Assembly (NCBI GenBank): GCA_016867835.1
Contig: VGIQ01000004.1
Span: forward strand, 1-54,344
DNA: 54,344 bases
Source of the DNA: Calditrichota bacterium
Lineage (GTDB): Bacteria; Electryoneota; AABM5-125-24; Hatepunaeales; Hatepunaeaceae
Direction of reading: 5' to 3'
Below are positions 13,537-38,961 of the stretch, one piece after another. How positions within the stretch are numbered: position 1 is the stretch's first letter; every line of letters begins with the position of its first letter. The notes below the pieces were generated by a model. The model ran no database searches and was not told the DNA's origin. It worked only from the letters and a program-made list of their open reading frames with translations. A program made the position numbers and the translations under genes.

Positions 13537-16500
13537 TTGCTGGCTAATGACCCTGAAGGAGCCGACGCCATTCGCGCGAGCGCGTGGTTTGCCAACTACT
13601 TCGAGGTGATTCGTCTGACCGACGGGAACAGCGCCTACCTGATGCTGCGCGAAGTGCTTAATGACAACTACTTCGATGACAACGGCACCCCGGACGATGC
13701 GACCGATGACGTGCGCGGCAGTTTCGATCTCGGCTGGGGGCTGCTGGTAGTGAAGGTGAACGCTCTCCACCCGGCGGTCGCGGTTCAGGTCGTCCATCCA
13801 TCGACCGACTTCATCTCTCCGCACGTTGCACTCGATGCTTTTCTGACCCTCGACGCCGGAACGTTGATGGTGAGCGGCGTCTCGCGCAACGCTGCCTGGT
13901 CGGGGCAGACTTACGATTCTGACTCATCGCTCTCGGATCCGTCGCGAAACGGACGCACCGCGCTGCAGGAGTGGAATCTGGCGATGCTCAGCGCCCGCCC
14001 CGGGACGTGGTCGATTCAGGTGCATAGTTACAACGCCTACAACTCGAACGGCACCCCGGCGCACGTCGGCGTCAACTCGGTGCAACTCTCATGGGAGCGC
14101 GAGAACCGGGCAGATCCGAACCTGCCGATGATGAGTTGGGACCACAATGACCTGATCAGTTTGACGCCCGACCCGGCGGTTCCGCAGAGTGAAGCCTGGC
14201 CCTTCGCAGCGGTCGGAATCGGATCCTACTACACCGCCTACTATCCCGGCAACTACAAGTGGCGCGGCCAGACGACCATTCCCAACAACGTCGATCTGCC
14301 CGGGACCGCGTCAAACTGCCAGATGGTAGCGTCGCATGTAGGGCATCACTTCACCTATGATCTCGAGAACTGGCTCCATATGGAACTCGACGAGTTCCCC
14401 GACGTGGCTGCAGCGACCGGGATGTCCATTGCGGAGTTCTACGGCTACACCGGGCCCGGCTCGGGCGTCCCGACCTGGCGCAACTTTCAAGCCGTGGTTC
14501 ACTACTACCGCCCAATCTTTACCGCTGCCCGAGCCTGGCTCGATCAGGCGCCCGCAGTGCCGTCGCTGGTGCAGGAGAGCGCTTCATTCGACAACTTCTA
14601 TATGGGCAGCACTGCTGGAGCGACGGCTTACGATAACTGGGTGAGCCACATTTCGGAAGGGATTGCCCAAGCCGGCTACAACGACCATGGACCGGCGCAA
14701 CTCGACCGGCAGACGAACGGCTTTGGCCGTTTCGAGGTGATCAATTCCGAAATCGGCGGTGATGTCGTGCTAAAGGTGTTGAAGGAGGCATCCCGGCGGC
14801 TCGTGACCGGCGATGAAGCAGGAGTGCGGTATCTGCTGCGCAACGCCGGACTCGGCACGAGGTATCAGTTGGTGCGTCTCACGGATGGCGATGCGACCTA
14901 CCTGATCCTGCGTGAAGTCCTGAATAACAACTATTTCGACGACAACGGCACGGAGACGGCCGCAGACGATGTTCAGGGCAGTTTCGACCTCGGCTGGGGA
15001 CTGTTTGCCGTTCGTCTCGACGCCCCCCGGGCGCAGATCATTATCGAAGCGCCGCATCCATGTGACGACTACGTCTCGCCGGCGCTGGCGCTCGACGCCT
15101 TTCACACCCTTGGCGCCGGAGTCCTGATGGTCAATGGCGCCGGCCGCGAGGTTGCCTGGACGGGAGTGACTCCCTACACCAATTCCAAGTCGCTTTCCGA
15201 TCCGACCCGCAACGGGCGCACCTGGTTCAATGTGATGCACCAGGCGGCGGTCGATCTGCTCGATCAGGAGTTGACGATTCAGGTGCATAGTTACGACAGC
15301 GACGGACATCCCAACAGCCGCTGTGGAGAAATCTCCGCCGCCGACGACTACTATCCCAATGCGCCGCTGATGGATGCCGGGACGCACTTCGATCTGGTCA
15401 GTTTGACGCCGCTCTACCCGGTCCCGGCTAATTCGATCGGCGCCGGCAATCATGCTGCCGTCCGGGTCGATGATTACTACGGCGTCTATTACGGCGGCGG
15501 ATACCGCTGGAACAACGACAACAACATCGTCATCTCGAACTACATCGAGCAGCCCGGATTCGGCTCCAATCAACAGATGCTCTACTCCCATGCCGGACAC
15601 AACGCCCAGAGCGACCCGGAAAACTGGCTCCACTTCGAACTCGACGAGTTCCCCAACGTCATCACCGAGAACATTATCTCGTTCTATGGCGGCGCGGATG
15701 CGGTTCCTACCTTTGCTGACTTCACAAACGAGGTGCAGTTCTTTCATCCGATCTTCGACGCCTTGGAGCGCTACTTCCAGGGCCCCGGAGAGCAAGTGTT
15801 AACGATTGCGCCATCATCCGAGCAGACGATCATCGGCACCCGGCAGGGGAGTCTTGCCGAGGTCTCAGCAAGCGACAACGGCTATGAGGTCCTGACCGAA
15901 GTCGTCTCGGGCGGCCAGCCTGCTCGGCGGTATAGTTACCTCGAGCACATCTGGACCTTCAGTTTGACCGGCTATGACCTCAGTCTGGCAGTCGAAGCGT
16001 TCCATAACAGCAACAACGAGAACGACCACTTTGTCTTCGCCGGGTCGTTCGACGGGCAGAACTATACCGAACTGCTGACCGTGACCAAGGTTGCAGATGA
16101 CAACACACCCCAGGTGGTTGCCATCAACGGCTCCGCAACGGGCAGTTTCTACCTCCGGGTGCGCGACACCGACCGAACGCAAGGCCGCACCGGGCTTGAC
16201 CGCCTCTCGGTCGATCATCTCGCGCTCACTTACACCGTCGGTGAGGCACCGGCAGATCAGTATATGGCTGTGGCAGGGATTGCGCTATCGTCAAGAGTTG
16301 TGAAGCGCAATACGACGGTAACGGGCATTGTTACCATTCAGTCCGAGAACGACAACCCGGTGCCGGGAGCAGTCGTCTCGGCGCGCTGGAGCGGCATCTA
16401 TTCGGCCAACGTCAACGGCACGACGGATGGCAACGGGCAGGTGTCGTTTGTAACGCCCCAGATCCGGGACGCCAGTGGCGATATCGTCCTGACCGTGCTC

Positions 16501-16878
16501 GACGTCGTCAAGGAGGGACTGACCTACGATCCCAACCTGAATGCCGTCTCGAGCGCAACCTTGCGGGTCGGCAATCAGGGCGGCAGCATCGCTACAGGTC
16601 CGGACATGCCGCAGGTTTATGCCATCGGCAGCGCCTTCCCGAACCCGTTCAATGCGAGTGTGAACTTGCAAGTTGCGCTGCCTGAGGCGGCTCTCTTCCA
16701 CCTTGCGCTCTACGACATGCAGGGAAGAAGGGTAGCGACGCTGCTCGAGGGGGTTCGACCGGCCGGGTGGCACCGGGCGGTCTGGACGGCAGGAACGTCC
16801 CCGGCGGGGAACTATGTGGTGGTGCTGCGGGCAGGTGAACGCATCCGTGCCACGCAGGTCATTACCTTGACGAAGTAG
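13537..16878 (+). CDS. Large secreted protein: two tandem ~390-aa hydrolase-like domains, beta-sandwich domain, Ig-like domain, T9SS C-terminal sorting domain (this frame is open from 13333)
   Basis: Internal duplication (RLTDGNSAYLMLREVLNDNYFDDNGT.../RLTDGDATYLILREVLNNNYFDDNGT...; HPSTDFISP...IQVHSYN / HPCDDYVSP...IQVHSYD). The C-terminus AFPNPFNASVNLQV...LALYDMQGRRVATL...GNYVVVLRAG...ITLTK is a T9SS CTD. Confidence 0.85.
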   Translation: MLANDPEGADAIRASAWFANYFEVIRLTDGNSAYLMLREVLNDNYFDDNGTPDDATDDVRGSFDLGWGLLVVKVNALHPAVAVQVVHPSTDFISPHVALDAFLTLDAGTLMVSGVSRNAAWSGQTYDSDSSLSDPSRNGRTALQEWNLAMLSARPGTWSIQVHSYNAYNSNGTPAHVGVNSVQLSWERENRADPNLPMMSWDHNDLISLTPDPAVPQSEAWPFAAVGIGSYYTAYYPGNYKWRGQTTIPNNVDLPGTASNCQMVASHVGHHFTYDLENWLHMELDEFPDVAAATGMSIAEFYGYTGPGSGVPTWRNFQAVVHYYRPIFTAARAWLDQAPAVPSLVQESASFDNFYMGSTAGATAYDNWVSHISEGIAQAGYNDHGPAQLDRQTNGFGRFEVINSEIGGDVVLKVLKEASRRLVTGDEAGVRYLLRNAGLGTRYQLVRLTDGDATYLILREVLNNNYFDDNGTETAADDVQGSFDLGWGLFAVRLDAPRAQIIIEAPHPCDDYVSPALALDAFHTLGAGVLMVNGAGREVAWTGVTPYTNSKSLSDPTRNGRTWFNVMHQAAVDLLDQELTIQVHSYDSDGHPNSRCGEISAADDYYPNAPLMDAGTHFDLVSLTPLYPVPANSIGAGNHAAVRVDDYYGVYYGGGYRWNNDNNIVISNYIEQPGFGSNQQMLYSHAGHNAQSDPENWLHFELDEFPNVITENIISFYGGADAVPTFADFTNEVQFFHPIFDALERYFQGPGEQVLTIAPSSEQTIIGTRQGSLAEVSASDNGYEVLTEVVSGGQPARRYSYLEHIWTFSLTGYDLSLAVEAFHNSNNENDHFVFAGSFDGQNYTELLTVTKVADDNTPQVVAINGSATGSFYLRVRDTDRTQGRTGLDRLSVDHLALTYTVGEAPADQYMAVAGIALSSRVVKRNTTVTGIVTIQSENDNPVPGAVVSARWSGIYSANVNGTTDGNGQVSFVTPQIRDASGDIVLTVLDVVKEGLTYDPNLNAVSSATLRVGNQGGSIATGPDMPQVYAIGSAFPNPFNASVNLQVALPEAALFHLALYDMQGRRVATLLEGVRPAGWHRAVWTAGTSPAGNYVVVLRAGERIRATQVITLTK

Positions 16879-18284: not shown

Positions 18285-18347
18285 TTTCTATCCGCTGGAC
18301 GACTCCCAACAGGCAAATTTTGCCTGCAAAGTCGCTTGCTTCCACTT

Positions 18348-20417
18348 ATGAAACCGCACCATCTGCATAATCCGTTCATCGAACGGCTGACCGAGCGCAG
18401 CGACGTCATTATCGCGGTTGCTGTCGTCGGGATCCTGATCCTGATGATCTTCCCGATCCCGACGCCGCTGCTCGATGTGCTGCTGGCATTTGGCATTGCC
18501 GTCGCGCTGCTGGTTCTGTTGATGGCAATGTATGCCACCGAGCCGCTCGAGTTCTCGGTCTTCCCGGGGCTGCTTCTGGTTCTGACGCTTCTGCGATTAG
18601 GGCTGAACGTTGCCTCGACACGGCTCATCCTGGCGGATGGATTTGCCGGTCATGTGATCGAAGCCTTCGGCGGATTCGTGGTGAAGGGTAATTATGTCGT
18701 CGGGTTGATCATCTTCCTGATACTGGTGGTGATCAATTTCGTCGTCATTACCAAAGGCTCGGGACGCATCGCCGAAGTTGCCGCGCGCTTTACCCTCGAT
18801 GCGATGCCGGGCAAGCAAATGGCCATCGATGCCGACCTGAACAACGGCATCATCGACGAAAAAGAAGCCCGCGAACGGCGCGATAAGATCGCCCGCGAAG
18901 CCGATTTTTACGGCGCTATGGACGGCGCAGCCAAGTTCGTTCGGGGAGATGCCGTCGCCGGGCTTCTGATTACACTGGTCAACATCGTCGGCGGACTAAT
19001 CATCGGCGTCGTCCAAAAGGGCATGCCGCTCATCGAGGCGGTGCAGAAGTATACCCTCCTCACCATCGGCGACGGACTGGTCACGCAAGTTCCGGCGCTT
19101 ATCGTCTCGACAGCCGCCGGCGTCCTCGTCAGCCGCGCGGCTTCAGAATCGAACCTGGGCCGGGACATCACCGGGCAGTTGCTGAGCCAGCCGCGAGCCA
19201 TTGCCATCGCCTCGGGGGTGCTCGGCTTCTTCGCCCTGATGCCGGGACTGCCGACGGTGCCGTTCCTGATTCTGGCCGGATCGACCGGCTACCTGGCGGT
19301 GATGACGAAGCGCGGTGCCCTGCTCGCCGAACGCCATGCTGCCGAAGCCCCCAAGACGAGCCGTCCCGAAGAAAAAATCACCGACTTCCTCCACGTCGAT
19401 CCCCTCGAACTCGAGATCGGCTACGGCTTGATCCCGCTTGTCGATAAAGAGCAGGATGGCGATCTGGTCAATCGCATCGGCGTCATCCGTAAGCAGCAAG
19501 CCCTCGAGACCGGCATTGTCATTCCGCCGATCCGCATTCGCGACAACCTGCAACTGAAAGCAAGCGACTACCTGCTGAAGGTGCGCGGCAACGAAGTCGC
19601 CCGCGGCGAACTTCGCGTCGGCAATCTTCTCGCTCTAAATCCCGGCGGCGCCGCCGGCAAGGTCAAGGGCATCGCCACCCGTGAACCTACCTTCGGCCTG
19701 CCCGCCCTCTGGATCGCCGAGGCGGAGCGCGAAAGCGCCGAAAATTATGGCTGGACCGTCGTCGAGCCGGCGGCCGTCCTGGCTACTCACATCGTCGAGA
19801 TTCTGAAGCGGAATGCTCACAAGATTCTCTCCCGCGAGGAAGCCAAGAAACTGCTCGACAACCTGAAAGCAACCTCCCCGTCAGTTGTCGAGGAGTTGAT
19901 TCCGAACTTGCTTACGCTCGGGACGGTGCACAAAATACTGCAGAAACTATTGAAGGAAGGGGTGCCGATCCGCGACCTCGCGATCATCCTCGAGACCCTC
20001 TCCGACTGGGCTCCGCATACCAAGGACGCCGATTTGCTGACCGAATATGTCCGCTACGCCCTCGCGCCGACCATCACCGAGCGGTTTTCCGATGAGGATG
20101 GCAAGATCTACGCCATTACCCTCGACCCGACGCTCGAGAGCCAGATCGCCGAGGAATTGCAGCGGTCACAAAATCGCGGACTCGGCGGACTGGCTCTCTC
20201 GCCGATGCTGATCAATAGCATCTACCGGCAGTTGATCCGGTTGACCGAAGAAATGACGAGCCAGGGCCGGCGTCCCATTGTGGTCTGCTCACCGACGGTC
20301 CGGGCCGCCTTCCACCGCCTTCTTGAGCCGGTGATGCCGCACGTGGCGGTAATCTCTTACGGTGAATTACTCGTCAATACGCCGGTCGAATCGACCGGAA
20401 TGGTGTCGCCCGAATGA
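18348..20417 (+). CDS. flhA: Flagellar type III export gate protein FlhA
   Basis: ARFTLDAMPGKQMAIDADLNNG...EADFYGAMDGAAKFVRGDAVAG is the FHIPEP signature. ATG 18348 is preferred over the upstream TTG 18336. Confidence 0.95.
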   Translation: MKPHHLHNPFIERLTERSDVIIAVAVVGILILMIFPIPTPLLDVLLAFGIAVALLVLLMAMYATEPLEFSVFPGLLLVLTLLRLGLNVASTRLILADGFAGHVIEAFGGFVVKGNYVVGLIIFLILVVINFVVITKGSGRIAEVAARFTLDAMPGKQMAIDADLNNGIIDEKEARERRDKIAREADFYGAMDGAAKFVRGDAVAGLLITLVNIVGGLIIGVVQKGMPLIEAVQKYTLLTIGDGLVTQVPALIVSTAAGVLVSRAASESNLGRDITGQLLSQPRAIAIASGVLGFFALMPGLPTVPFLILAGSTGYLAVMTKRGALLAERHAAEAPKTSRPEEKITDFLHVDPLELEIGYGLIPLVDKEQDGDLVNRIGVIRKQQALETGIVIPPIRIRDNLQLKASDYLLKVRGNEVARGELRVGNLLALNPGGAAGKVKGIATREPTFGLPALWIAEAERESAENYGWTVVEPAAVLATHIVEILKRNAHKILSREEAKKLLDNLKATSPSVVEELIPNLLTLGTVHKILQKLLKEGVPIRDLAIILETLSDWAPHTKDADLLTEYVRYALAPTITERFSDEDGKIYAITLDPTLESQIAEELQRSQNRGLGGLALSPMLINSIYRQLIRLTEEMTSQGRRPIVVCSPTVRAAFHRLLEPVMPHVAVISYGELLVNTPVESTGMVSPE

Positions 20418-21619
20418 ACGTCCGCAGGTTTGAAGCCGCCTCAGTGAGCGAAGCGCTCGCCGCCGTGAAAAAAGAGTTCGGCGACGAAGCCGTGATCCTT
20501 CGGACGCGGTCGGTCCGCAAGGATGGGTGGCTCCCCTTCCGGACCCGCCAGATGATAGAAGTTACCGCCGCTTCACCCGACCGGGCGCCGGTCCCGGGTC
20601 TGATGGAGTCGGCTCCCCGCGACGAGGCCATAGATAAGGCCCGTCAACTGTTGACCCAGCGCTCCGCCGCGAACGGAGCGATGGAACTGAAGGAAGACAT
20701 TTCCGAACTGAAGGAGCATATCCGCATGCTGGCTGAACAGATTCGTCTGGAACGCGCGCCATCACTCCCGCCGACGCTCGATCGCGCGCTGCTGAACTTG
20801 AGCCGGTCGGGGCTCGAACGTTCGATTGCAGGGGGGATCGCATCGCACCTTTGTCAACTCTATCCGGGTGAGACGCTGGAGAAGTCGGAATTCGTCGAGC
20901 GGGAACTGCGCGACGCCGTTGCCGGGATGATCAAACTGCGCCGTCCGCCGCTGAAATCACCCGGCAGGGCGCGCATCGTTGCCATCGTCGGGCCTACCGG
21001 TGTCGGCAAGACAACGACCCTTGCCAAGTTGGTAACCAGTTACCGGTTCTGGGGGAAGTGTGACACCGCGCTCGTTTCGGCGGACACCTACCGCGTCGCC
21101 GCGCTCGAGCAACTGAAGACCTTTGCTTCGATTGCCGGCCTGCCTATGGAGACGGCTTATCAACCCGGAGCTATGAAGAGCGCCATCGGACGGCATAAGC
21201 ACCGCGACGCCATCTTCATCGATACCGCCGGTCGCTCGACCGCCGACCCCGACCGGATCGAAGAACTGGCGACTTTTCTCGAAGCCGGAGGCGTCGATGA
21301 AGTGCTCCTTTGTCTGGCCGTCTCAACCCGCCTTGAGGATCAACTGGCGATCATCGGACGTTATGCCCTGCTCAAACCGACCGGGATCATCTTCACCAAA
21401 CTCGCCGAGACCCGCGCGCCGGGAGCCATCGTCAATGTCGGTGCGCAGACTGAATTGCCGGTGACCTTTATCACCTGCGGGCAAAATGTCCCCGACGACG
21501 ACATCCTGATGGCCGATCCGCGCCGAATTGCCGAGGTGGTTCTGCACCCCGAGTCGATGGAACAACTTCTGAAAAGCCGCTTTTCGCCTTGGATCGGCAA
21601 CCCTGGAGCCGATGCGTGA
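20414..21619 (+). CDS. flhF: Flagellar SRP-type GTPase FlhF
   Basis: IVGPTGVGKTTTLAKL, DTYRVAALEQLK, IDTAGRS. 4-nt overlap with flhA. Confidence 0.9.
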   Translation: MNVRRFEAASVSEALAAVKKEFGDEAVILRTRSVRKDGWLPFRTRQMIEVTAASPDRAPVPGLMESAPRDEAIDKARQLLTQRSAANGAMELKEDISELKEHIRMLAEQIRLERAPSLPPTLDRALLNLSRSGLERSIAGGIASHLCQLYPGETLEKSEFVERELRDAVAGMIKLRRPPLKSPGRARIVAIVGPTGVGKTTTLAKLVTSYRFWGKCDTALVSADTYRVAALEQLKTFASIAGLPMETAYQPGAMKSAIGRHKHRDAIFIDTAGRSTADPDRIEELATFLEAGGVDEVLLCLAVSTRLEDQLAIIGRYALLKPTGIIFTKLAETRAPGAIVNVGAQTELPVTFITCGQNVPDDDILMADPRRIAEVVLHPESMEQLLKSRFSPWIGNPGADA

Positions 21620-22491
21620 ATGCCGACCAGGCAGCCGCCCTGCGTAGCCGCGCAGCCGAGTCGCGAGCCGTCGAACGGGCTTCGCGCAGTGCTCTACGTC
21701 TCACGGTGACCAGCGGAAAGGGCGGCGTCGGAAAGTCGAATTTTGCGCTAAATGCAGCGATTGCGCTCGCCGCGCTCGACCGTCGGGTGTTGCTCGTCGA
21801 TGCCGATGCCAACCTCGCCAACCTCGATCTGCTGATCGGCGTCAATCCCAAGCACAACTTGGGCGACGTCTTTCGCGGGCGAGCCGGTCTGAACGACGTC
21901 CTGATCGACGGCCCCGGCGGATTGAAAATCCTCCCCGGAGCCTCGGGCGACCTCGAACTGCTCGATCACGACGCCGAAATCGAACAGCGCCTTTCGGAAG
22001 GCTTTCGCACGCTCGACCGCTCGTTCGACGTGATCCTGATCGACACCGGAGCCGGACTTTCGCCGGAGATCGTATCCTATGCCGCTGCTGCCGACGACAC
22101 CGTGATCGTTACCCATGCCGAGCCGACCGCGACCGCCGATGCCTATGCGATGATCAAGGTGATCTCGCAGCGCAACCCAAACGCACGCATTCACATCCTG
22201 GTCAATATGGTGCGCAGTCAGACCGAAGCCGAAGACCTCTTCGACCGGCTCAGTCTGGTGGTGCAGAACTTCCTTCAGTTTCCGCTTGAGTTCCTCGGTT
22301 TCATACCGAACGACCCTCAGGTGCGTATAGCGGTGGCTGCCCAGCGTCCGTTTTCAGTCCTCTTTCCTAATTCACCGGCCGCCATAGCCGTGCGGATGAT
22401 GGTGCGCAAACTGCTGCGGATGCCGTGGACCGGCGGAACCCCGGAACGGGAGTCGCTCTGGTCCAGAGTCTTCGGTGGCAGGACGCAATAA
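21616..22491 (+). CDS. flhG: MinD/ParA-type ATPase FlhG (FleN/YlxH)
   Basis: SGKGGVGKSNFALNAAIALA deviant Walker A. N-terminal DQAAALR resembles the FlhF-activating DQAxxLR motif. GTG 21616 overlaps the flhF stop (GTGA); an upstream TTG at 21589 is also possible. Confidence 0.85.
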   Translation: MNADQAAALRSRAAESRAVERASRSALRLTVTSGKGGVGKSNFALNAAIALAALDRRVLLVDADANLANLDLLIGVNPKHNLGDVFRGRAGLNDVLIDGPGGLKILPGASGDLELLDHDAEIEQRLSEGFRTLDRSFDVILIDTGAGLSPEIVSYAAAADDTVIVTHAEPTATADAYAMIKVISQRNPNARIHILVNMVRSQTEAEDLFDRLSLVVQNFLQFPLEFLGFIPNDPQVRIAVAAQRPFSVLFPNSPAAIAVRMMVRKLLRMPWTGGTPERESLWSRVFGGRTQ

Positions 22492-22554
22492 AAATGGAGG
22501 GCAGGAGTCCATCCGCCCAAGAAGACGGCATAAGTCAGATACAGTTAGAGTCAT

Positions 22555-22872
22555 ATGGAAAGATCCACTATAACTAATTTCAGCGTGCTAAGCCGTCAGG
22601 TTGCTGCGATGCTTGCCGTCGTCGTCTTTCTGGGACGCCTCTGGCGTGATGCCGGTCCGCTCGACGCGCTATTTGCCGCTGCGGTCGTCTATCTCGCCCT
22701 CTCGACGACCGGGCTCCTGATACGCGGCATCCTGATACGCCTGGTTGACGATCGCGCGTCGTCAAAGTCCGGGGTTGAACAACCCGCGCCCTCGCCCGCT
22801 GAAGCGCCACCGACGCCCCCCCCAACGCTCGACAACCCTCTGGCTGCTTTTGACCTCGGAGTTCGGGGGTGA
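22555..22872 (+). CDS. Hypothetical small membrane protein between flhG and fliA
   Basis: 105 aa with two hydrophobic helices and a Pro-rich tail. Its stop overlaps the fliA GTG (GTGA), suggesting translational coupling. Contains a C8 tract at 22816-22823. Confidence 0.5.
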   Translation: MERSTITNFSVLSRQVAAMLAVVVFLGRLWRDAGPLDALFAAAVVYLALSTTGLLIRGILIRLVDDRASSKSGVEQPAPSPAEAPPTPPPTLDNPLAAFDLGVRG

Positions 22873-23669
22873 GCGCGCTGGCGTCGCAACTCTATCGCCC
22901 CCCGGTCGAGCCGGACGGCGATGTAACCCGCCTCTGGGAGACCTATATCGTGCAGCGCGACGGGCTGCTGCGCGAGCGCTTGCTCGTCCATTACATCCCG
23001 CTGGTAAAACAGGTCGCCGGAAGGATGAAGGTCGGGCTGCCCGGTTCGGTTGCCTACGACGACGTCGTCAGCGCCGGCCTTATGGGCCTTTTGAATTGCA
23101 TCGACGCCTTCGAACCGGGGCGTGGTTTTAAATTCGAGACCTTCGCCCTGCCGCGCATCCGGGGAGCGATCCTCGACGGTCTGCGCGAAATCGATTATTT
23201 GCCGCGTTCAACCCGCCGCAAGGTGAAAATGCTCGACGCGGCAACCGAGAAACTGACCGCCGACTTGGGAAGACCGCCCGATGACCGGGAGGTCGCCGAG
23301 GAACTCGGACTGGAAGGCGAAGACTATACCCGATTCATGGAGTCGGCAGGAGACTTTCCTGTCGTGTCGCTCGACGCACCGATCGCCGGCGAAGAAGGCG
23401 AAACCGGGTCCCTAAATGACCTCATCCCCGACGACGAAGCCGATCCCCACGCCCGCCTCGAGGAAAAGGACGCTCAAAATTGCGCACTTCGCCTCATTGA
23501 TGAACTTCCGGAGGTTGACCGGGCAGTTATCGCCTTATATTACTATGAAGAACTGACCCTTCGGGAGATCGGCCTCGTCCTCGGCGTCAGCGAATCGCGC
23601 GTCTCGCAAATCCATTCCCGCATCCTTTCGACGTTGCGAGGAAGACTGCGCAATCTGCTGGAGAAATGA
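22869..23669 (+). CDS. fliA: Flagellar sigma factor FliA (sigma-28)
   Basis: Sigma-70 family regions 2-4. YYYEELTLREIGLVLGVSESRVSQIHSRIL is a region 4.2 HTH. Sits directly after flhF-flhG. Confidence 0.9.
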   Translation: MSALASQLYRPPVEPDGDVTRLWETYIVQRDGLLRERLLVHYIPLVKQVAGRMKVGLPGSVAYDDVVSAGLMGLLNCIDAFEPGRGFKFETFALPRIRGAILDGLREIDYLPRSTRRKVKMLDAATEKLTADLGRPPDDREVAEELGLEGEDYTRFMESAGDFPVVSLDAPIAGEEGETGSLNDLIPDDEADPHARLEEKDAQNCALRLIDELPEVDRAVIALYYYEELTLREIGLVLGVSESRVSQIHSRILSTLRGRLRNLLEK

Positions 23670-31127: not shown

Positions 31128-32660
31128 TCAGAACTGCGACGTCAGCGTTACCTTGACGCCCTTAAGCGGGTTGACGTTTCGGCACAAACCTCCCGAACAG
31201 CGGATGCCGCCCCGCTCATAGCCATAAAAGAGCCGCAACTGGTGATTTTCGACGGCGGTAATAGCCAGCTCTGCCGACGGCCAGTAACCGTCCGCGCCCC
31301 AGAACTTCCGGTTGGCTTCACTATTGAGCCGCACCCCGCTGATGTCGTAAATATCCCCCGACCGCTCGCATAAGAATGTAATGGTGCCGAGTCGCGGTTT
31401 GGAGACCGAAAACGACACCAGGGCGTCCCGGAACTGCCGGTCGCCATAGAGCCAGTTGCCGCTCGGATCCTGCCCTTGAAAGACCTCATGCAGCATCACA
31501 TTCCAGAGGTGCTGAAACTCGGTAGTAAAGGCGATGTCATGCATCCAGCGATGCTCATAATGCGCGCCGCCGCCATAGCGATGCCAGAACGAGGTCTGTT
31601 CCTTATATCCGGCCAGCACAGCATACCGGTCCCCGCCGGGCAGACTCCGCTCGGCTTTCGACCAGAGGCTCCAGTAAGGTCCGAGATAGTCCCGATAGGA
31701 CGGCAGCATCGTCAGGACGTTCTGCCGCGACACTTGGTCGTAGTTGATCTTGACCGACCAGTCGAACGGAAGCGCGAGGTTAATATCGGTCTGAAGGCCG
31801 ACTTCGTTGTCGTAGTAGGGTGTATGCGGGTAGCGGTCGAAGACGTTGAAGGTAACCTCCGGCTGCACCGGCGGCGGATACTGCAACGCCGGCGTAAAGT
31901 AGGGCGGCAGGCGGTAGTTCTTGTAGTCGATCACGGCGCCCCAACCGGTGCCATAGAGTTCGAGCGCGCTGTAGAAGCCGTGTGAAAACCGGCCGCCAAC
32001 AGGATCGAAACTATCCGCGACATAGACGACGTAGGCCTGTCCAAAGTCGAAGGGGTAATTGACCTCGTAGCCGCGTCGATCGAAGGCCGTATGACGGGGA
32101 CCTTCGTCGAAGTGCAGAATAGAAGTCCCCAGCCGGAGCCCAAAGGGCAGCCGGTAGCCTAAGTTCAAGCCTTCGGCCGACTCCTGCGCCACGCCGCTGG
32201 TGTCGATTTCGCCACCGCGAAAGATCGCGCCCTCGAAGTCCTCGTAGGCGCCTTCGACGAGAACTCCCTGCAGACCGGTGTCGTAGTTGATCTCCCGCAC
32301 CTCAGTCATTCCCATGATAAGGCCGCGCCCCCAGTTGCGGTAGAAGTCGCCGCCCCGGATGGTCAGATAGTCGCCGCGATACTCGAGGTATTTTTTATCG
32401 ATAGCGCGAAAGCCCGATTGCTCGACGCCGAACTCCGAGGGGTGGAGGAATCTCTGACGCAAATGAAGCCGAAAGGCTTCGTGAGTGGCGTCGATCTCGA
32501 GGTCATTCTCAAAATACCCCCAGTTGCCGGCCGGCTTTAGTATGTCGCCGGTGCCGCGTCGGGCGTAGCGCAGTTCGTTCTGTCCGGAGATGCCTCCGGC
32601 CAGAATTTCTCCGGTGGTGCCTAACAGAATTGCCAGTGCCAGGATGCCGGGTCGTTTCAC
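31128..32660 (-). CDS. Outer-membrane beta-barrel protein, unknown family
   Basis: Signal peptide MKRPGILALAILLGTTGEILA, Tyr/Gly-rich alternating strands, C-terminal ...VKVTLTSQF (terminal Phe, an OMP signature). Confidence 0.7.
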   Translation of the reverse strand: MKRPGILALAILLGTTGEILAGGISGQNELRYARRGTGDILKPAGNWGYFENDLEIDATHEAFRLHLRQRFLHPSEFGVEQSGFRAIDKKYLEYRGDYLTIRGGDFYRNWGRGLIMGMTEVREINYDTGLQGVLVEGAYEDFEGAIFRGGEIDTSGVAQESAEGLNLGYRLPFGLRLGTSILHFDEGPRHTAFDRRGYEVNYPFDFGQAYVVYVADSFDPVGGRFSHGFYSALELYGTGWGAVIDYKNYRLPPYFTPALQYPPPVQPEVTFNVFDRYPHTPYYDNEVGLQTDINLALPFDWSVKINYDQVSRQNVLTMLPSYRDYLGPYWSLWSKAERSLPGGDRYAVLAGYKEQTSFWHRYGGGAHYEHRWMHDIAFTTEFQHLWNVMLHEVFQGQDPSGNWLYGDRQFRDALVSFSVSKPRLGTITFLCERSGDIYDISGVRLNSEANRKFWGADGYWPSAELAITAVENHQLRLFYGYERGGIRCSGGLCRNVNPLKGVKVTLTSQF

Positions 32661-33208
32661 TCGTCAGCCGCCGATGGCGTCGATTCACCTGCCGGTTCCG
32701 TTACTGAAGGCTCCTTGCCGAAATAGGCGGCGACTGCGGCTTCCAGTTTCTTTTCGTCACCCGGGACATAACCGACATGACTGTAAAGGATCTCCCCCGA
32801 AGGCGCAATCAATGCGGTGAAGGGCATCGTCGTCCCTCCAAAAAGGCGGCGCACCTCCATCGTCTCGTCGAGCAGGACGAGGAAGTTGTCCCACCCTTCG
32901 GCCTTGATCAGCGGCTTCACCTTCGACCGGCTCTTGGTGTTATCGACCGAAACCGCGACGACCCGCAGTCCATCCTTGCGGTAGGCTTGCTCGATCTTCT
33001 CGATCATCGGCAGTTCCTCAAGACAGGGCTTGCACCAAGTCGCCCAGAAGTCGAGCAGGATGGGACCCTCCTTCAGCAGTTTCGATAGTTTATGGGTCTT
33101 GCCATCGACATCCTTTAGGCTGAAGTCGGGCGCCTTGTCGGCAGCAAATGCTGCGGTACCGGCAAGGGCGGTGGTGAATAGTGCTATGATGAAGCGGCGA
33201 AGGGGCAT
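32657..33208 (-). CDS. Periplasmic thiol:disulfide oxidoreductase, TlpA/ResA/redoxin family
   Basis: Signal peptide from ATG 33208 (MPLRRFIIALFTTALAGTAAFA). Active site FWATWCKPC. Its stop overlaps the OMP GTG (GTGA). Confidence 0.85.
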   Translation of the reverse strand: MPLRRFIIALFTTALAGTAAFAADKAPDFSLKDVDGKTHKLSKLLKEGPILLDFWATWCKPCLEELPMIEKIEQAYRKDGLRVVAVSVDNTKSRSKVKPLIKAEGWDNFLVLLDETMEVRRLFGGTTMPFTALIAPSGEILYSHVGYVPGDEKKLEAAVAAYFGKEPSVTEPAGESTPSAADE

Positions 33209-33282
33209 GGGACTCCTCAAGAGTGGTCGGGCAGGCAAACCTTGCCAGCGCTGGTAACTAATCAAAATAACTCCATTTGTGG

Positions 33283-33317
33283 CGCAAAAGCAAAGGGGAG
33301 CGGCATCGCCGCTCCCC
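33283..33317 (-). terminator. Rho-independent terminator closing the BMC-aldolase operon
   Basis: The minus strand reads GGGGAGCGGC-gat-GCCGCTCCCC followed by tttgcttttg, about 45 nt after the aldolase stop. Confidence 0.7.
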
Positions 33318-33362
33318 CTCGCACCCTGAATAGCGCATCGGGCGATGCGCATAGTGCCACTT

Positions 33363-34157
33363 TTACATGCGCCCCTCCTCGATGATTCTTCGCACTAAAG
33401 GCGCCAACCGTTCGATGTCGGCGTCAACGATGCTCTCAAGCGGCGAACGCGGCTTAAGAGCGGGTGTATAGCGGCCGGATATCGTGAAGCGTGGCTTGGC
33501 CGGCTTCGCGGCTCCTGACCGGTAACGTTCGAGCGAGGACTGCACCTGCGCCATTTCTTGAGGCGACAGCGGTCGCACCGGCCCGAGCAAACGCGCCGAG
33601 TGGGTCACCCGGGCGGCGAACTCAAGCCGTTCCAACTTGTGATAGGCTTCCCAAAGCGTCGTGCCGACCGTAAGCGAACCGTGCCGGTCGAGGATGACGG
33701 CATCATGCTTGCCGATCGCTTCTTTGATCACGTCCGCTCCTTCCGGTGAAGCGGGGGCGGCAAATAACGTCGTCGGGATTGAGCCGAGCGACATCACCAC
33801 TTCGGGCAGGAGCGCGTCGGCGAGCGACTCTCCGGCAAGGGTGAAAGCGACTGCATAGGGCGGGTGGGCGTGAATCGCCGCCAGGACGTCGGGCCTCAGG
33901 CGATAGGCAGCCAGATGCAGGAGCACTTCACTGGAGACCCGCCCCCCCCGGATGGTGTTGCCAAACTCGTCGCATATGACGAGGTCGCGATCGGTCAAAT
34001 CGCCTTTGCAGATGCCGGAGCGGGTCACCAGAAAGCGTCCCCGCCCCAGCCGCACCGAAAGGTTGCCGTCGGTCGCGACGACGAAATTCTTCTCATACAT
34101 CCGTTTGCCGACCGCGATCACTTCGCGTCGGGCGGAAGATTCGGAAATCGGCGTCAT
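33363..34157 (-). CDS. Class II (Zn) aldolase/adducin-family enzyme (fuculose/rhamnulose-1-phosphate aldolase-like) with a ~50-aa C-terminal extension
   Basis: ATDGNLSVRL, SSEVLLHLAAY, AIHAHPPYA (HxH), ILDRHGSLTVG. Tail ...PRSPLESIVDADIERLAPLVRRIIEEGRM. ATG 34157 is preferred over TTG 34190. Confidence 0.85.
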   Translation of the reverse strand: MTPISESSARREVIAVGKRMYEKNFVVATDGNLSVRLGRGRFLVTRSGICKGDLTDRDLVICDEFGNTIRGGRVSSEVLLHLAAYRLRPDVLAAIHAHPPYAVAFTLAGESLADALLPEVVMSLGSIPTTLFAAPASPEGADVIKEAIGKHDAVILDRHGSLTVGTTLWEAYHKLERLEFAARVTHSARLLGPVRPLSPQEMAQVQSSLERYRSGAAKPAKPRFTISGRYTPALKPRSPLESIVDADIERLAPLVRRIIEEGRM

Positions 34158-34244
34158 GGGTTGCCAGGCTCCGTGCCTTGTTTGCCGCAATTCATTGCGG
34201 CATTAGCCTCGATGAATCGAAGCATACCATTGTAATGCAAGAAA

Positions 34245-34511
34245 TTACTCAAGATCGATCCTATCGACGATGGCGACGGCGACGGCATCGACCGGCCGGT
34301 TAGCCGTGGCATCGATGGTCTGGGTGGAGGGACCATTGGCAATCAGGACGAGGTCTCCCTGCCCGGCGCCGACGCTGTCCGCCGCAACGAGATGTCGTCC
34401 GGTCGGCTCGAGCGCCAGGTCGAGTTCCTGCACGGCGAGCAACACCAGCCCCGTCAAAGCGGGGTTCTTGTGTGACGCAGCGACCGTGCCGGAGACCAGG
34501 CCGATGATCAC
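34245..34511 (-). CDS. Bacterial microcompartment vertex protein BMC-P (EutN/CcmL family)
   Basis: 88 aa. MIIGLVSGTVAASHKNP...LLAVQELD...VAADSVGAGQGDLVLIANG...RPVDAVAVAIVD parallels EutN/CcmL. The GTG start overlaps the BMC-H stop (GTGA). Confidence 0.85.
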   Translation of the reverse strand: MIIGLVSGTVAASHKNPALTGLVLLAVQELDLALEPTGRHLVAADSVGAGQGDLVLIANGPSTQTIDATANRPVDAVAVAIVDRIDLE

Positions 34512-34819
34512 TCTTCGGCGCTCCGGGTGAGCGACAACTGCCCCCGGCTGAGAGCCGCTTCGACGTCCTCATGTGGCCGGGGTATGACGTGAGCCGCAAC
34601 CAACGGCCCCACCTTTTCGGCAGACTGGCCGGCCGCTTCGACGGCCGCCTTGACCGATGCGACGTCGCCACGCACGACGACGGTGATGAACCCGCCGCCG
34701 GTCGGCACGAGTCCGCTGATATCAACCCGCGCGGCTTTGACCATCGCGTCCGCGGCTTCGATGGCTGCGGCGTAGGAGCGGGTCTCGATTATCCCGAGGG
34801 CGGAACTTCCCCCTTTCAT
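34508..34819 (-). CDS. Bacterial microcompartment hexamer shell protein BMC-H (PduA/EutM/CcmK family)
   Basis: 103 aa from ATG 34819. ALGIIETRSYAAAIEAADAMVKAARVDISG...GGGFITVVVRGDVASVKAAVEAAG...VAAHVIPRPHEDVE is a canonical PF00936 sequence. Confidence 0.9.
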   Translation of the reverse strand: MKGGSSALGIIETRSYAAAIEAADAMVKAARVDISGLVPTGGGFITVVVRGDVASVKAAVEAAGQSAEKVGPLVAAHVIPRPHEDVEAALSRGQLSLTRSAEE

Positions 34820-34919
34820 AACGCTATCCAGTTGATGGTGAATGTCTGATTCGTCACGAGCGAGCCTCTGCCGGTGCCCGCGACCAGTATTCTCCGGTGC
34901 GGAGCGACGGGCACGGGCA

Positions 34920-35762
34920 TCAGAATTGTTTTTCGATGACCGCACGCTCAACCTGATTCTGCAGTTCGGTCGTCCGCTTCGGATCGCGCAGCGCGACCAG
35001 GGTCCAGAGCGTATCGACGATCGCCACCTGGGCGACGCGCGAAGCGACTGCCTCGGCTCGAAACTTTGTCTCCGATGAAGCCGTGTAGAGGACGATGTCG
35101 GCGGTGCGCGTAACCGGCGAGCGCGAGAAGTTCGTCACCGCGATCGTCGTAGCACCGCGCTTGCGCGCCAGTTCAAGGGTATAGACCGTGTCGCGCGTGT
35201 TGCCCGAATGGGTGATCGCCAGAACTACATCCTCGGGCGACGAGAGTCCGACCGCCATCGCCTGCAGGTGGCTGTCGGTATGAGCCGAGCAGGAAAGTCC
35301 GAGGCGCAGGAACTTATTATAGGCGTCGAGGGTGTTCGGTCCCGAAGTGCCGACGCCGACAAAATAGATGTGCCGCGCTTTGCCAAGCGCTGCGACCGCC
35401 TTCTGAATGCTGAGCGGATCGAGCACCTGCAGCGTGTCATTCATCGCTGCGATATGCCCGCCGAAGACCTTGCGCATCACAACCGCCGGAGGATCCTCCG
35501 GTGCGATAGACTCGTGAATGCTGCGGATGGGCGCGATCACTTCGCGCGCCAAATGCAGTTTCAAGTCCTGAAAGCCGATCAGACCCAACTTGCGGGCGAA
35601 GCGGACCACGGTCGCTTCGCTGACCCCGCTTTCGGAAGCCACATCGGCGACCGAGCGATAGATCAGTTCCGACGGCCGCTCGCGGATGTAAAGCGCGAGA
35701 CGGGCATCGGCGCCCTTCAGGTTGGGCTCCATAAGTCGGATGCGGGTGATGATACTGGACAT
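34920..35762 (-). CDS. MurR/RpiR-family transcriptional regulator (HTH + SIS sugar-phosphate-binding domain)
   Basis: N-terminal HTH_6-like ...YRSVADVASESGVSEATVVRFARKLGLIGFQDLK. SIS domain IYFVGVGTSG...ITHSGNTRDT. Confidence 0.85.
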   Translation of the reverse strand: MSSIITRIRLMEPNLKGADARLALYIRERPSELIYRSVADVASESGVSEATVVRFARKLGLIGFQDLKLHLAREVIAPIRSIHESIAPEDPPAVVMRKVFGGHIAAMNDTLQVLDPLSIQKAVAALGKARHIYFVGVGTSGPNTLDAYNKFLRLGLSCSAHTDSHLQAMAVGLSSPEDVVLAITHSGNTRDTVYTLELARKRGATTIAVTNFSRSPVTRTADIVLYTASSETKFRAEAVASRVAQVAIVDTLWTLVALRDPKRTTELQNQVERAVIEKQF

Positions 35763-35807
35763 TGTGATGATCTACGGTTAATGTGCTTACCGGTGAAACT
35801 TTGCTAC

Positions 35808-35836
35808 ATAATACAAGCGCACAATAGGTTTGTCAA
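35808..35836 (-). promoter_or_regulatory. Near-consensus sigma-70 promoter of the rpiR-BMC-aldolase unit
   Basis: The minus strand reads TTGACA (35836-35831), 17-nt spacer, TATTAT (35813-35808), in an AT-rich intergenic region about 45 nt upstream of the rpiR ATG. Confidence 0.6.
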
Positions 35837-35861
35837 GAGAAAAATGTAATAATGTTTCACT

Positions 35862-35903
35862 TTTCAAAAATAATAATGAAATAGCGCGCCTTTCAAGCGC
35901 GAT
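35862..35903 (-). terminator. Possible intrinsic terminator after the ABC ATPase gene
   Basis: The minus strand reads CGCGC-ttgaaag-GCGCG followed by ctatttcattattattttt. The stem is short. Confidence 0.4.
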
Positions 35904-35952
35904 CAAACCGACTTAAGAGGTTGTTCTGTGTAGGATTAGGGAAAGTGGCAGG

Positions 35953-36633: not shown

Positions 36634-38072
36634 GGAGCGCTCCGGAGCGCTTCGCCAACGGCAAACTCCAGTTCGCCCAGGGCAATGTGGTAGTTGCCGG
36701 TCGTTTCTATCAACTCCCCTTCTGCGCGCTCGTAACTGACCTGCGCCAGATTGACATCGATCAGTGTCGCAGCCCCGAGTCGGTAACGTTCCTGCTCGAA
36801 AGCGAGCGTCTCGCGCGCCAGACGGACATTGCCTTCGGCCGCTCGAAACTGCTCGTAGAGCGCTTGAAGGCGTTCGAAGGCGGCGGTTACCTCAAGGTGA
36901 ATGCGCCGTTCATGTTCGCTCATGTCGAGGCGGGTCTGGTGCAGTCTGACGCGCGCCTCCTCCAGCCGTAGGCCGCGGGTGAAGCGGTCGAATATCTGCC
37001 ATGAAGCAGTAAGTCCAACCGAGGTGAACCGGTTGCGCGGGGTGAGCCGCCACCCGACGTCGAGGCCCGACTGCTCGCTGCGGTTATGAGTCAGGTTGAG
37101 TGCGACCAGGGGCAGATAATCGCCCTTTGCTGAGCGGAGATCGTTGCCTTCTATCTTCATTTGTAACTCAGCCGCCCGGCGGTCGTCGCGGCCGGCAAGG
37201 GCACTCGAGACCAGGTCTTCAAGCGGCCTGCTGAAGGGTGTCGGCGAGGGCAGTCCGGCAAGTTGAATCTCTTGATCGAGAGGCAGTCCAAGCGTCAATC
37301 GCAGGTCATCGAGCGCCCGCCGCCAGACGTAACCGGCTTGGAGACTGTCGCTGCGCGCCCGACCGAGATCGACCTCGGCTTGCAGCACATCCCGCCTCGT
37401 AACCGATCCGATGCTAAGCCGGGTGCTTGCCAAGTCGAGGAGGAGAGTCCGCATTTCCACCGTCCGTCTGGCCAGAATTAGCCGCTGCGATGCATTTACC
37501 GCAGTGCAGTAGTCGCGCGTAGTCTGAAGACGCACCCGGTGCAACAGCCGATGCTGCTGAGCCTCCCGCAAATCGTTGGCATAAAGGCTATTCCGATAGG
37601 AGTTGAAGTTCCGTCCGCCGTCGAAGAGGATCTCCTCGGCGCGGATGAAGATGCCCGAACTGCGACGACTTCCTTCAGGAACCGGCACTACGCGAATATA
37701 AGGCTCAGGCGACATCCGGACATAACCGGCGCTATCGACATAGGTGCTGTAGAGCGAGTCGATACGGGGAAAGGTAGCAACCGAGCCGTCGGGATTGAGA
37801 TAGGTGGGGCTGTAGAAGCGTGACTGGTCGGCGGTGTAACCGACCGTTAGGGTCGGCAGAAAGCGCCCCAGCGCAGCCCGGACTCCCGGCCCGGAGAGGC
37901 GATCCTCGAGAGCCGATTTGGCCAGATCGGGATTGCCAGACTGGGCAGCCATAAGGCACTCTTCGAGGGTCATCTGTCGTGGCGGGGATGGAATAGCTGG
38001 ACGTGATGCCAATATCCCCGTCAATATCAGGGAGATTAGAAAGAAGCGCAGGGTCGCTGGTCGCCTAATCAT
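36630..38072 (-). CDS. TolC-family outer-membrane efflux protein
   Basis: Signal peptide MIRRPATLRFFLISLILTGILA from ATG 38072 (TTG 38093 is also in frame). Two OEP repeats with coiled-coil segments. Confidence 0.8.
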   Translation of the reverse strand: MIRRPATLRFFLISLILTGILASRPAIPSPPRQMTLEECLMAAQSGNPDLAKSALEDRLSGPGVRAALGRFLPTLTVGYTADQSRFYSPTYLNPDGSVATFPRIDSLYSTYVDSAGYVRMSPEPYIRVVPVPEGSRRSSGIFIRAEEILFDGGRNFNSYRNSLYANDLREAQQHRLLHRVRLQTTRDYCTAVNASQRLILARRTVEMRTLLLDLASTRLSIGSVTRRDVLQAEVDLGRARSDSLQAGYVWRRALDDLRLTLGLPLDQEIQLAGLPSPTPFSRPLEDLVSSALAGRDDRRAAELQMKIEGNDLRSAKGDYLPLVALNLTHNRSEQSGLDVGWRLTPRNRFTSVGLTASWQIFDRFTRGLRLEEARVRLHQTRLDMSEHERRIHLEVTAAFERLQALYEQFRAAEGNVRLARETLAFEQERYRLGAATLIDVNLAQVSYERAEGELIETTGNYHIALGELEFAVGEALRSAP

Positions 38073-38961
38073 ATTCCTTATATAGATAGTCAATTGCCGG
38101 ACTCATCGAGTCGAGCCGAAGCCGGGTGGTGGCTATCGCCAGACGGCTCCGGTCTATCCCTGCGAAGGCGTGTCCAGACCGGACAGCAGCCACCAGCGCG
38201 GTCCCGCTGCCGCAGAACGGATCCAGGACGACGCCACCCGGCGGCGATGACGAGGTGACGATGCGCTCGAGGAGCGCGAGCGGCTTCTGCGTCGGATAGC
38301 CGGTTCGCTCCCGAGCCATATTGTTGAGCGTTGAAATTAGCCAGTAGTCGGGGATCTTTTTGACCTGCCCTTTCATTCGCTGCGACGATGCAGGCATCAA
38401 GGGCGGCGAAAAGTAGTGCTGCCCCGGCTGACGCGCATACCAATAGATCTCGTCGTGCTTGCGCGGCCAGTGCCGGGCTGAACTGCCGCCCAATCCGTAG
38501 CACCAAACTATGCTGCTGAGGTGCGCATCGACCCCCAAGAGTCCATCAAGCAACAGCCTGGCAATTCCGGAGGCGCGCTGATCGCAGTGGAAATAGAGCG
38601 AACCGGTTAACTTCAGAATTCGTCGGAGTTCGACCAGCCGCGGCGCCAGCATGACGGCATAGGCGAGCAACCCCGACTCGCCATAGACTTCGCGCAGCGC
38701 CTTCAATATCCCGGCGAGGGTCTTCGACCCTCCGACCTGAATCTCCTTGTAAGCCTTTTTCGCCTCGTCTTCCCAGCGCCAGATGTCAGAGTAGGCGGTC
38801 CCGGAGGCGCTCTCCCTGGTGCGATACTGCTTCTGCGACCCAAAGGGCGGATCGAGGTAGATCAGGTCGATCGACTGGTCGGCAAATTCGCGCCGCAATA
38901 CCGGGAGGTTGTCCCCGAAATAGAGCCTGTTCAAGGCTAATGCCGGGCTTGAAACAGTCAT
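38065..38961 (-). CDS. Beta-class (N6-adenine/N4-cytosine) DNA methyltransferase, paralog of 3228-4175, no adjacent restriction gene
   Basis: LIYLDPPFGSQ ... TGSLYFHCD ... TGYPTQKP ... DPFCGSGTA. Collinear with the first methylase. Overlaps both flanking genes. Confidence 0.85.
   Translation of the reverse strand: MTVSSPALALNRLYFGDNLPVLRREFADQSIDLIYLDPPFGSQKQYRTRESASGTAYSDIWRWEDEAKKAYKEIQVGGSKTLAGILKALREVYGESGLLAYAVMLAPRLVELRRILKLTGSLYFHCDQRASGIARLLLDGLLGVDAHLSSIVWCYGLGGSSARHWPRKHDEIYWYARQPGQHYFSPPLMPASSQRMKGQVKKIPDYWLISTLNNMARERTGYPTQKPLALLERIVTSSSPPGGVVLDPFCGSGTALVAAVRSGHAFAGIDRSRLAIATTRLRLDSMSPAIDYLYKEYD

Follow-up and report, generated by a model that had tools for sequence, protein, structure and literature searches.

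A probable cut-down microcompartment operon of four genes with a putatively tagged class II aldolase in a Calditrichota-like clade

The window analysed here comprised the 54,344 nucleotides of contig VGIQ01000004.1 from the Calditrichota bacterium assembly GCA_016867835.1. On its minus strand it held a four-gene unit for an RpiR-type regulator, one hexamer (BMC-H) and one pentamer (BMC-P) shell protein of bacterial microcompartments (BMCs) and a FucA-like class II aldolase (Table 1). Judged from its sequence, the unit is probably a working but cut-down microcompartment operon. An earlier note, made from the letters of this DNA, had described a four-gene module at this place, and the open reading frame (ORF) list together with the Pfam matches bore out the four genes, their coordinates and their strand. 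All four proteins matched Pfam far above the curated cut-offs. The regulator matched HTH_6 at 1.4e-19 and SIS at 2.4e-22, BMC-H matched PF00936 at 3.2e-27, BMC-P matched PF03319 at 2.5e-23 over positions 1-83 of 83 and hence over the full length, and the aldolase matched PF00596 at 2.4e-46. The stop codon of BMC-H and the GTG start codon of BMC-P overlapped in GTGA, the coupling given in the note. The motifs AMVKAAR, PTGGGF of the pore and IPRPH were present in the window copy of BMC-H, with the facet interface preserved.

No further shell gene and no gene for aldehyde dehydrogenase (AldDH), phosphotransacylase (PTAC), alcohol dehydrogenase, acetate kinase or PduS was found in Pfam scans of 50 ORFs across the window. 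A six-frame tblastn search of the 54 kb with BMC-H, BMC-P, BMC-T, AldDH and PduS queries (E<1e-3) returned no BMC gene beyond the four-gene unit, which left the window with one BMC-P and zero BMC-T. The absence of other shell and core enzyme genes had been noted for 20 kb; it extended to the whole window. Likewise, no AldDH or other partner gene was present within about 10 kb on either side of the unit in five further lineages of its clade.

The same four genes were found in the same order in the loci L001-L004, L012, L095-L098, L176-L183 and L185, and one copy of the unit is on contig CAYHEC010000004.1 of assembly GCA_964355675.1. The usual slot was flanked by PolyA polymerase-Yip1-N6 methylase-OEP-ABC on one side and by tlpA-(DUF6029)-nfeD-comEC-RNase HII on the other. 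In the L012 lineage, the upstream flank differed. The earlier note would have given up its reading if the arrangement had been conserved in no relative; with its synteny kept in many of them, the unit is a real, bounded module. A search with RpiR returned at least 16 clusters at 69-100% identity, followed by a gap to 54% or less. Identity of the window RpiR to the proteins of the 15 other clade clusters (P0244-P0258) was 87-69%, and the closest relative (87%; GenBank MBM3325679.1) came from a Calditrichota metagenome-assembled genome (MAG). Flanks of the relatives encoded Por_Secre_tail proteins of the type IX secretion system. The prolyl-tRNA synthetase of the window shared 68% identity with one from a Calditrichota MAG and 65% with the enzyme of Candidatus Hatepunaea meridiana (Electryoneota, FCB group), and organism and clade are accordingly called Calditrichota-like, within the FCB group. 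Its compared sequences ranged from 46% to 60% GC; the clade is therefore old. BMC-H shared 64-79% identity with the clade orthologues at ratios of nonsynonymous to synonymous substitution rates (dN/dS) of 0.03-0.12, and BMC-P shared 58-70% at 0.07-0.24. Across all four genes, dN/dS was 0.03-0.24, values that are rough because dS was saturated in most pairs. By these ratios, all four genes are under purifying selection.

The aldolase fitted class II in its residues and its fold. H96-x-H98, H159, S75-S76-E77, G31-N32 and S47-G48 were invariant in 15 sequences. H96, H98 and H159 would be the metal ligands and E77 the catalytic residue, with G31-N32, S47-G48 and S75-S76 predicted to bind phosphate, as in class II enzymes. 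Sequence matches in the PDB included FucA and YgbL at 1e-22 to 1e-15. Foldseek with the aldolase model ranked FucA at the top with a TM-score of about 0.78 on the target, and FucA, YgbL/OtnC, 5-deoxyribulose-1-phosphate aldolase and AraD appeared at similar levels in the PDB sequence and fold searches. Against NCBIfam, the best score was at most 114 bits, with cut-offs of at least 137 for every listed model and of 200-400 for the aldolase, decarboxylase and epimerase models. No equivalog cut-off for an assignment as L-fuculose-phosphate aldolase was reached. On this evidence the protein is a class II aldolase-family enzyme with a predicted sugar-phosphate substrate.

Behind a variable linker, the aldolase ended in ...ADLERLAPLIKRVIEEGRM. 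The AlphaFold model combined a FucA-like core with a disordered stretch at residues 217-246, in which the linker had a per-residue confidence (pLDDT) below 50, and a helix at 248-260. Conservation was 0.84 in the tail, 0.81 in the catalytic core and 0.45 in the linker. The hydrophobic moment of the protein peaked in the tail (0.79), where all of the six top-ranking 14-residue windows lay. Sequence and model thus agreed on the architecture of a cargo enzyme, an amphipathic-helix peptide behind a flexible linker, for which binding to the shell is predicted. The conserved helix is likely an encapsulation peptide (EP). This putative signal had been missed in the earlier note and is the strongest evidence for the aldolase as cargo. 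C-terminal EPs on PF00596 aldolases are recorded for the types ACI, MUF2 and MUF3 in the catalogue (PMC8217296). Among the first 20 matches, the 14 full-length tagged clade aldolases other than that of the window all had a CPxCGGPxH-like Cys/His motif in the linker. The motif CxxCGxCG recurred in the aldolases of fuller BMC loci, and Cys motif plus amphipathic helix ended the aldolases of those loci as well, including GRM5/PVM-like loci of Clostridia (PVM, Planctomycetes-Verrucomicrobia type). Hence the C-terminal extension dates far back among BMC-associated aldolases.

Two groups of relatives, L008/L009 and L010/L011, carried the aldolase in the same slot and lacked RpiR, BMC-H, BMC-P and the C-terminal extension altogether. 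Their aldolases were 226 or 215 aa long and 69% and 62% identical to the core of the window enzyme; contig Ga0247841_10000816 belongs to a relative of this shell-less kind. In a neighbour-joining tree of the core domain, calculated without support values, the L008/L009 aldolase (P0017) nested inside the tagged clade. The L010 group adjoined that clade, and the aldolases of L014 and L013 came next further out. The simplest reading of these sequences would be that the tag disappeared along with the shell genes, on two or more occasions. For a function of the tail in the shell, the absence of the tag exactly where the shell genes were absent is the best evidence available. The aldolase was kept after the loss of the block, which shows that it works in this lineage with neither shell nor local AldDH. 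Loci L141 (4797-10672) and L146 (4662-10675), with the order Tdp-H-P-AldDH-PduS-Ts-aldolase and a single BMC-P, show an intermediate stage of shell reduction in another lineage.

The regulator consisted of an N-terminal HTH_6 and a C-terminal SIS domain, as is usual in the RpiR family, and reached no NCBIfam equivalog cut-off. It fits a phosphosugar inducer. Upstream of RpiR, CTTGACAA-N17-TATAAT was found in L012, L001, L004, L097 and L014. The extended arrangement CTTGACAA-N17-TATAATGTAGCA.AATTTCA was present in all lineages of the clade and recognisable in the distant L014 with 34% GC. Promoter and GTAGCA.AATTTCA motif were kept across sequences of 34% to 60% GC (L001, L004, L012, L097, L014 and window positions 35763-35952). 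The near-consensus promoter proposed in the earlier note matched at 11 of 12 positions. The motif TGTAGYARARTTTCA, with up to 2 mismatches, had three matches in the window against 0.16 expected, and two of them flanked the RpiR promoter in inverted orientation to each other. Upstream of RpiR in L004, L012, L097 and L005/L006, the downstream one recurred exactly, in the corresponding position. The two inverted motifs look like an operator pair, to which RpiR would bind. In L012, a second full copy of ATGTAGCAAAATTTCA was located about 125 bp upstream of the RpiR start codon.

Several points weigh against a working compartment operon. Shell, encapsulation and enzyme activity are all predicted from the genes. 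The aldolase tree has no support values, the dN/dS values are approximate, and the gene search for partners covered the 54-kb window of this genome. In the window aldolase itself, PRFTISGRYT stood in place of the Cys/His motif of the linker (33423-33521, residues 213-245), so that CxxCG was lost and the terminal helix kept. In the BMC-H of L001 (9345-9653) and L004 (9391-9699), IPRLH replaced the canonical inter-hexamer motif IPRPH. Under standard metabolosome logic, a shell that holds only the aldehyde-producing enzyme has no obvious benefit.

The lost Cys motif, the PRLH variant of L001/L004 and the stepwise reduction in the lineage, from full locus through four genes to aldolase alone, would also suit a decaying relic. 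The shell genes would then be leftovers of a deleted locus that form no compartments, and the aldolase a plain cytosolic enzyme. Such decay is improbable in view of the intact ORFs, of dN/dS well below 1 in BMC-H and BMC-P over sequences 14 GC points apart, of a tail as conserved as the active site, of the conserved promoter and operator motifs and of the retained GTGA coupling.

The likely ancestor of the unit was recognised in fuller loci. Locus L014 (= L099, SDBU01003551.1) had the order RpiR-BMC-Tdp-BMC-H-BMC-P-AldDH-PduS-BMC-Ts-BMC-P-BMC-P-aldolase. Its RpiR was 52% identical to that of the window over all 280 aa, and its aldolase core 54%. BMC-H overlapped the first BMC-P as in the window, and the window BMC-P matched that first pentamer best. 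L184, on a 296-kb FCB-type contig, had the order of L014 without PduS and an RpiR 51% identical to the window's. At least 13 further metagenome contigs ran from H through AldDH to aldolase, and at least 10 had the full order Tdp-H-P-AldDH-(PduS)-Ts-P-P-aldolase. These contigs came from a search with an alignment of tagged aldolases, which used generic core motifs and gave at least 80 loci on contigs not tied to genomes. The shell and AldDH core without an adjacent aldolase was seen in Kofleriaceae, Krumholzibacteriota, Neomarinimicrobiota, Acidobacteriota and others. Given the orthologous RpiR, the shared overlap and the terminal aldolase, the window unit corresponds to the parent locus minus BMC-Tdp and the block from AldDH to BMC-P. 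By gene order and similarity, it is a stripped-down descendant of this common ten-gene, HO-like locus and a reduced variant of a known compartment type.

The label HO-like was assigned from gene content set against the catalogue text and not from the catalogue's hidden Markov models. The unit had the orthologous RpiR and the terminal PF00596 aldolase with its putative EP, and lacked the BMC-P triplet and the BMC-T proteins (Tdp, Ts). With L014 and L184 (cf. HO type II of Sutter et al. 2021), it had in common the promoter architecture, the basal BMC-H/BMC-P overlap and a last-gene aldolase with linker and helix. In contrast to them, the window had only one of three BMC-P and none of BMC-Tdp, AldDH, PduS and BMC-Ts.

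The earlier note had taken the PVM fucose/rhamnose type as its frame, and a satellite of such a compartment would share with the unit a PF00596 aldolase of FucA-like fold as signature enzyme. In PVM, PVM-like and GRM5 loci a class II aldolase likewise generates the aldehyde. The window differed from them in the lack of AldDH, PTAC, acetate kinase and reductase and in a single BMC-H paralog; none of AldDH, PduL-type PTAC, acetate kinase, lactaldehyde reductase or several shell paralogs was present in the 54 kb. The nearest fuller loci pointed elsewhere as well. They carried BMC-Tdp, a BMC-P triplet, PduS/PduT and RpiR, with no other genes returned in them by tblastn with RpiR, shell-protein, AldDH and PduS queries, and the PVM marks PTAC, acetate kinase and lactaldehyde reductase were absent from the gene tables of L014 and L184. 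The aldolases of the Clostridia GRM5/PVM-like loci were only 30-38% identical and placed far off in the tree. A PVM satellite is thus very improbable, and the right comparison is the RpiR-headed HO-like locus. The word satellite also had to be given up. As defined by Axen 2014 and Sutter 2021, a satellite locus has only BMC-H or only BMC-P, and a locus with both is a main locus; because both are present, the window unit counts as main.

Where the aldehyde would be consumed was the point on which two readings of the reduced operon parted. Biochemical logic requires aldehyde consumption inside the shell. The unit could accordingly be the core piece of a fragmented microcompartment, with an EP-tagged AldDH and probably further shell proteins (BMC-T, BMC-P, PduS/PduT) elsewhere in the genome. 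Related types are dispersed in this way in the catalogue (PMC8217296), namely HO type I, MIC3 and MUF2 with satellites, ACI with AldDH on a satellite, and the FRAG types. According to its Supplementary Data 2, aldolase satellites occur in HO type I (two BMC-P plus aldolase), MIC3 (BMC-P triplet plus aldolase) and MUF2 (BMC-H plus aldolase). Such satellites resemble the window in a PF00596 aldolase, often with a C-terminal EP, few shell genes and a position away from AldDH. They accompany a known main locus and hold one shell protein class, whereas the window had BMC-H, BMC-P and its own regulator. In FRAG types, per the same supplement, the genes are scattered over up to six sites, and FRAG3 is commonest in Calditrichaeota. 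FRAG3 and MIC4 share this broad taxon with the window, and MIC4 also has a PF00596 aldolase. MIC4 is listed with AldDH, PTAC, acetate kinase and PduS/PduT, all of which the window lacked. FRAG types have a BMC-P triplet and shell genes scattered over several sites; the window locus has one BMC-P.

A tagged aldolase apart from shell genes was indeed seen in L013:10001-10771 (ENA ERZ21862375 contig_1, 1.47 Mb). It had CxxCGACG and the terminal helix, was placed close to L014 in the tree, and stood alone, the 10 kb to either side being free of homologues of shell genes, AldDH and RpiR; it speaks for a fragmented system. Such a system is a serious possibility, though short of an even chance. Partner genes were found neither in the 54-kb window nor within about 10 kb on either side in the five further clade lineages, and the unit had a regulator, promoter and terminator of its own and was lost as a block twice. 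A tagged aldolase in L165, from the same Ga0194125 metagenome as L012, was considered as a second locus of the L012 organism and rejected on its GC content of 61% versus 51%.

The second reading takes the four genes as the organism's whole microcompartment system, an autonomous compartment for one enzyme with the aldehyde disposed of in the cytosol. Alternatively, the shell might keep a promiscuous aldolase apart from aldehydes in the cytosol and from dihydroxyacetone phosphate, or stabilise it. The operon was self-contained, no partner genes lay nearby in any of at least six lineages, and the joint loss of regulator, shell genes and tag spared the aldolase. The reduction of L141/L146 to a single BMC-P points the same way. 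A single BMC-H with a single BMC-P was enough in vitro for closed shells that took up one enzyme. From Klebsiella GRM2, cmcC and cmcD, a single BMC-H with a single BMC-P, formed small closed particles, into which one signature enzyme was taken up (PMC6971018). By analogy with this precedent, a shell of one hexamer and one pentamer protein would be feasible. The recombinant GRM2 shells were laboratory constructs cut from a larger locus, whereas the window holds a natural, conserved operon with the same parts list, known from its genes. Autonomy is nearly as probable as fragmentation and less likely than not. No type in the available text of the 2021 catalogue (PMC8217296) consists of signature aldolase and shell only, and no selective benefit is evident. 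No description of an aldolase-only BMC locus was found in the literature, and no BMC was reported for the phylum Electryoneota in a paper on its MAGs (PMC9324843). The unit also departed from a metabolosome, with a CoA-acylating AldDH (PF00171) missing both from the 54-kb window and from the 10 kb to either side of the unit in relatives.

For a reduced but working operon, the following sequence of events is proposed. RpiR would repress the operon at the two operator-like motifs that flank the promoter and release it when its SIS domain binds a sugar phosphate. BMC-H and BMC-P would assemble into small closed shells, into which the aldolase would be recruited through its C-terminal helix as EP. 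Inside the shell, the aldolase may split a substrate of the ketose-1-phosphate type into triose phosphate and an aldehyde. Removal of the aldehyde is not encoded at the locus; on balance it is somewhat likelier than otherwise to be supplied from elsewhere in the genome.

Table 1. Features of the four-gene unit and its flanks, with positions in the window.
Feature	Position	Strand	Basis
RpiR/MurR-family regulator (HTH_6 + SIS), 280 aa	34920-35762	minus	ORF + Pfam
BMC-H hexamer shell protein, 103 aa, basal type	34508-34819	minus	ORF + PF00936
BMC-P pentamer (vertex) protein, 88 aa, translationally coupled to BMC-H	34245-34511	minus	ORF + PF03319
FucA-like class II aldolase, 264 aa in all	33363-34157	minus	ORF + PF00596
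Aldolase core (residues 1-212) and poorly conserved linker (213-245)	33423-34157	minus	alignment, Pfam
Aldolase C-terminal amphipathic helix ADIERLAPLVRRIIEEGRM and stop codon, putative encapsulation peptide	33363-33422	minus	
Sigma-70-type promoter TTGACA-17-TATTAT	35808-35836	minus	11/12 consensus positions
Operator-like motif TGTAGCAAAGTTTCA, abuts -10 element	35794-35808	minus	exact matches in relatives
Upstream operator-like motif TGTAATAATGTTTCA, candidate RpiR binding site	35845-35859	plus	motif count
GC-rich spacer between RpiR and BMC-H, 100 bp; position of BMC-Tdp in fuller loci	34820-34919	minus	
Intrinsic terminator, 10-bp GC stem, 3-nt loop, TTTGCTTTTG tail	33283-33317	minus	

The downstream boundary of the operon was a strong terminator, as the earlier note had it. 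The hairpin at 33317-33295 with its T-rich tail had a folding energy of -33 kcal/mol (z = -4.2), and none of 200 shuffled sequences was as stable. It was not among the candidates listed by the terminator scan, yet visible in the sequence. The longest tlpA-like ORF (32657-33352, 231 aa, start 33352) crossed this terminator. Relatives and the Logan gene calls (183 aa) indicate 33208 as the true tlpA start, and the terminator sits between this likely start and the stop codon of the aldolase. In the spacer between RpiR and BMC-H, which was 44-220 bp long among the relatives compared, no conserved element, internal promoter or terminator was found. This spacer of 100 bp and the 87 bp between BMC-P and the aldolase were considered as remnants of deleted genes and set aside as too short to tell.

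The neighbours corresponded to the earlier description. A tlpA-like redoxin, a DUF6029 outer-membrane protein, nfeD and comEC were located on one side, and the opposite side carried genes for an ABC ATPase and for an OEP/TolC-like protein. The wider surroundings consisted of housekeeping, envelope, flagellar and chemotaxis genes. A plus-strand ORF of 1113 aa (13537-16878) without a Pfam match at 1e-5 was located upstream of a flhA-flhF-flhG-fliA cluster (18336-23669). Two genes for N6/N4 DNA methyltransferases (3228-4175 and 38065-38961) were present without an obvious restriction partner, the second of them being part of the flank PolyA polymerase-Yip1-methylase-OEP-ABC that is conserved in the relatives. 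Multihaem cytochrome c genes were found in the window at 8789-10207 and near the unit in L004 (17113-20795) and L008 (18665-20681), which hints at an anaerobic or metal-respiring lifestyle of the clade.

Outside the clade, a search of genome contigs with the window BMC-H gave, among the matches listed, BMC-H of 52-67% identity from other phyla. A second kind of arrangement with a single BMC-H and a single BMC-P was observed in Chloroflexota/Anaerolineae MAGs (L053:6426-10686, L042:9108-10815 and L050). L053 encoded RpiB (PF02502) with an N-terminal extension, a DeoC-type aldolase (PF01791), an AAC(3)-like acetyltransferase (PF02522), BMC-H and BMC-P. The core of acetyltransferase, BMC-H and BMC-P was common to L053 and L042, and in L050 only BMC-H and BMC-P were identified. 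No AldDH was present within 10 kb on either side of these loci. Their BMC-H were the most similar to that of the window outside its clade among the matches listed (63-67% identity).

If the compartment is autonomous, the unit would be a natural, conserved minimal organelle in which one hexamer protein and one pentamer protein enclose a single aldolase, with an evolutionary series from ten-gene locus through four genes to bare aldolase. To our knowledge, no natural microcompartment operon would then be smaller, and the rule that the aldehyde-producing and aldehyde-consuming steps share one enclosure would be broken. What the enclosure of one aldolase is good for would be a question in its own right; it could gate the substrate, shield the cytosol from a promiscuous enzyme or stabilise the aldolase. 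Should partner genes be located elsewhere, the loss of the tag exactly with the loss of the shell would still provide comparative evidence for the C-terminal helix as a targeting signal, and the clade a rare natural series of stepwise organelle reduction within one chromosomal slot. A dedicated RpiR with a candidate operator offers a handle on the substrate of a widespread, uncharacterised type of aldolase/AldDH compartment.

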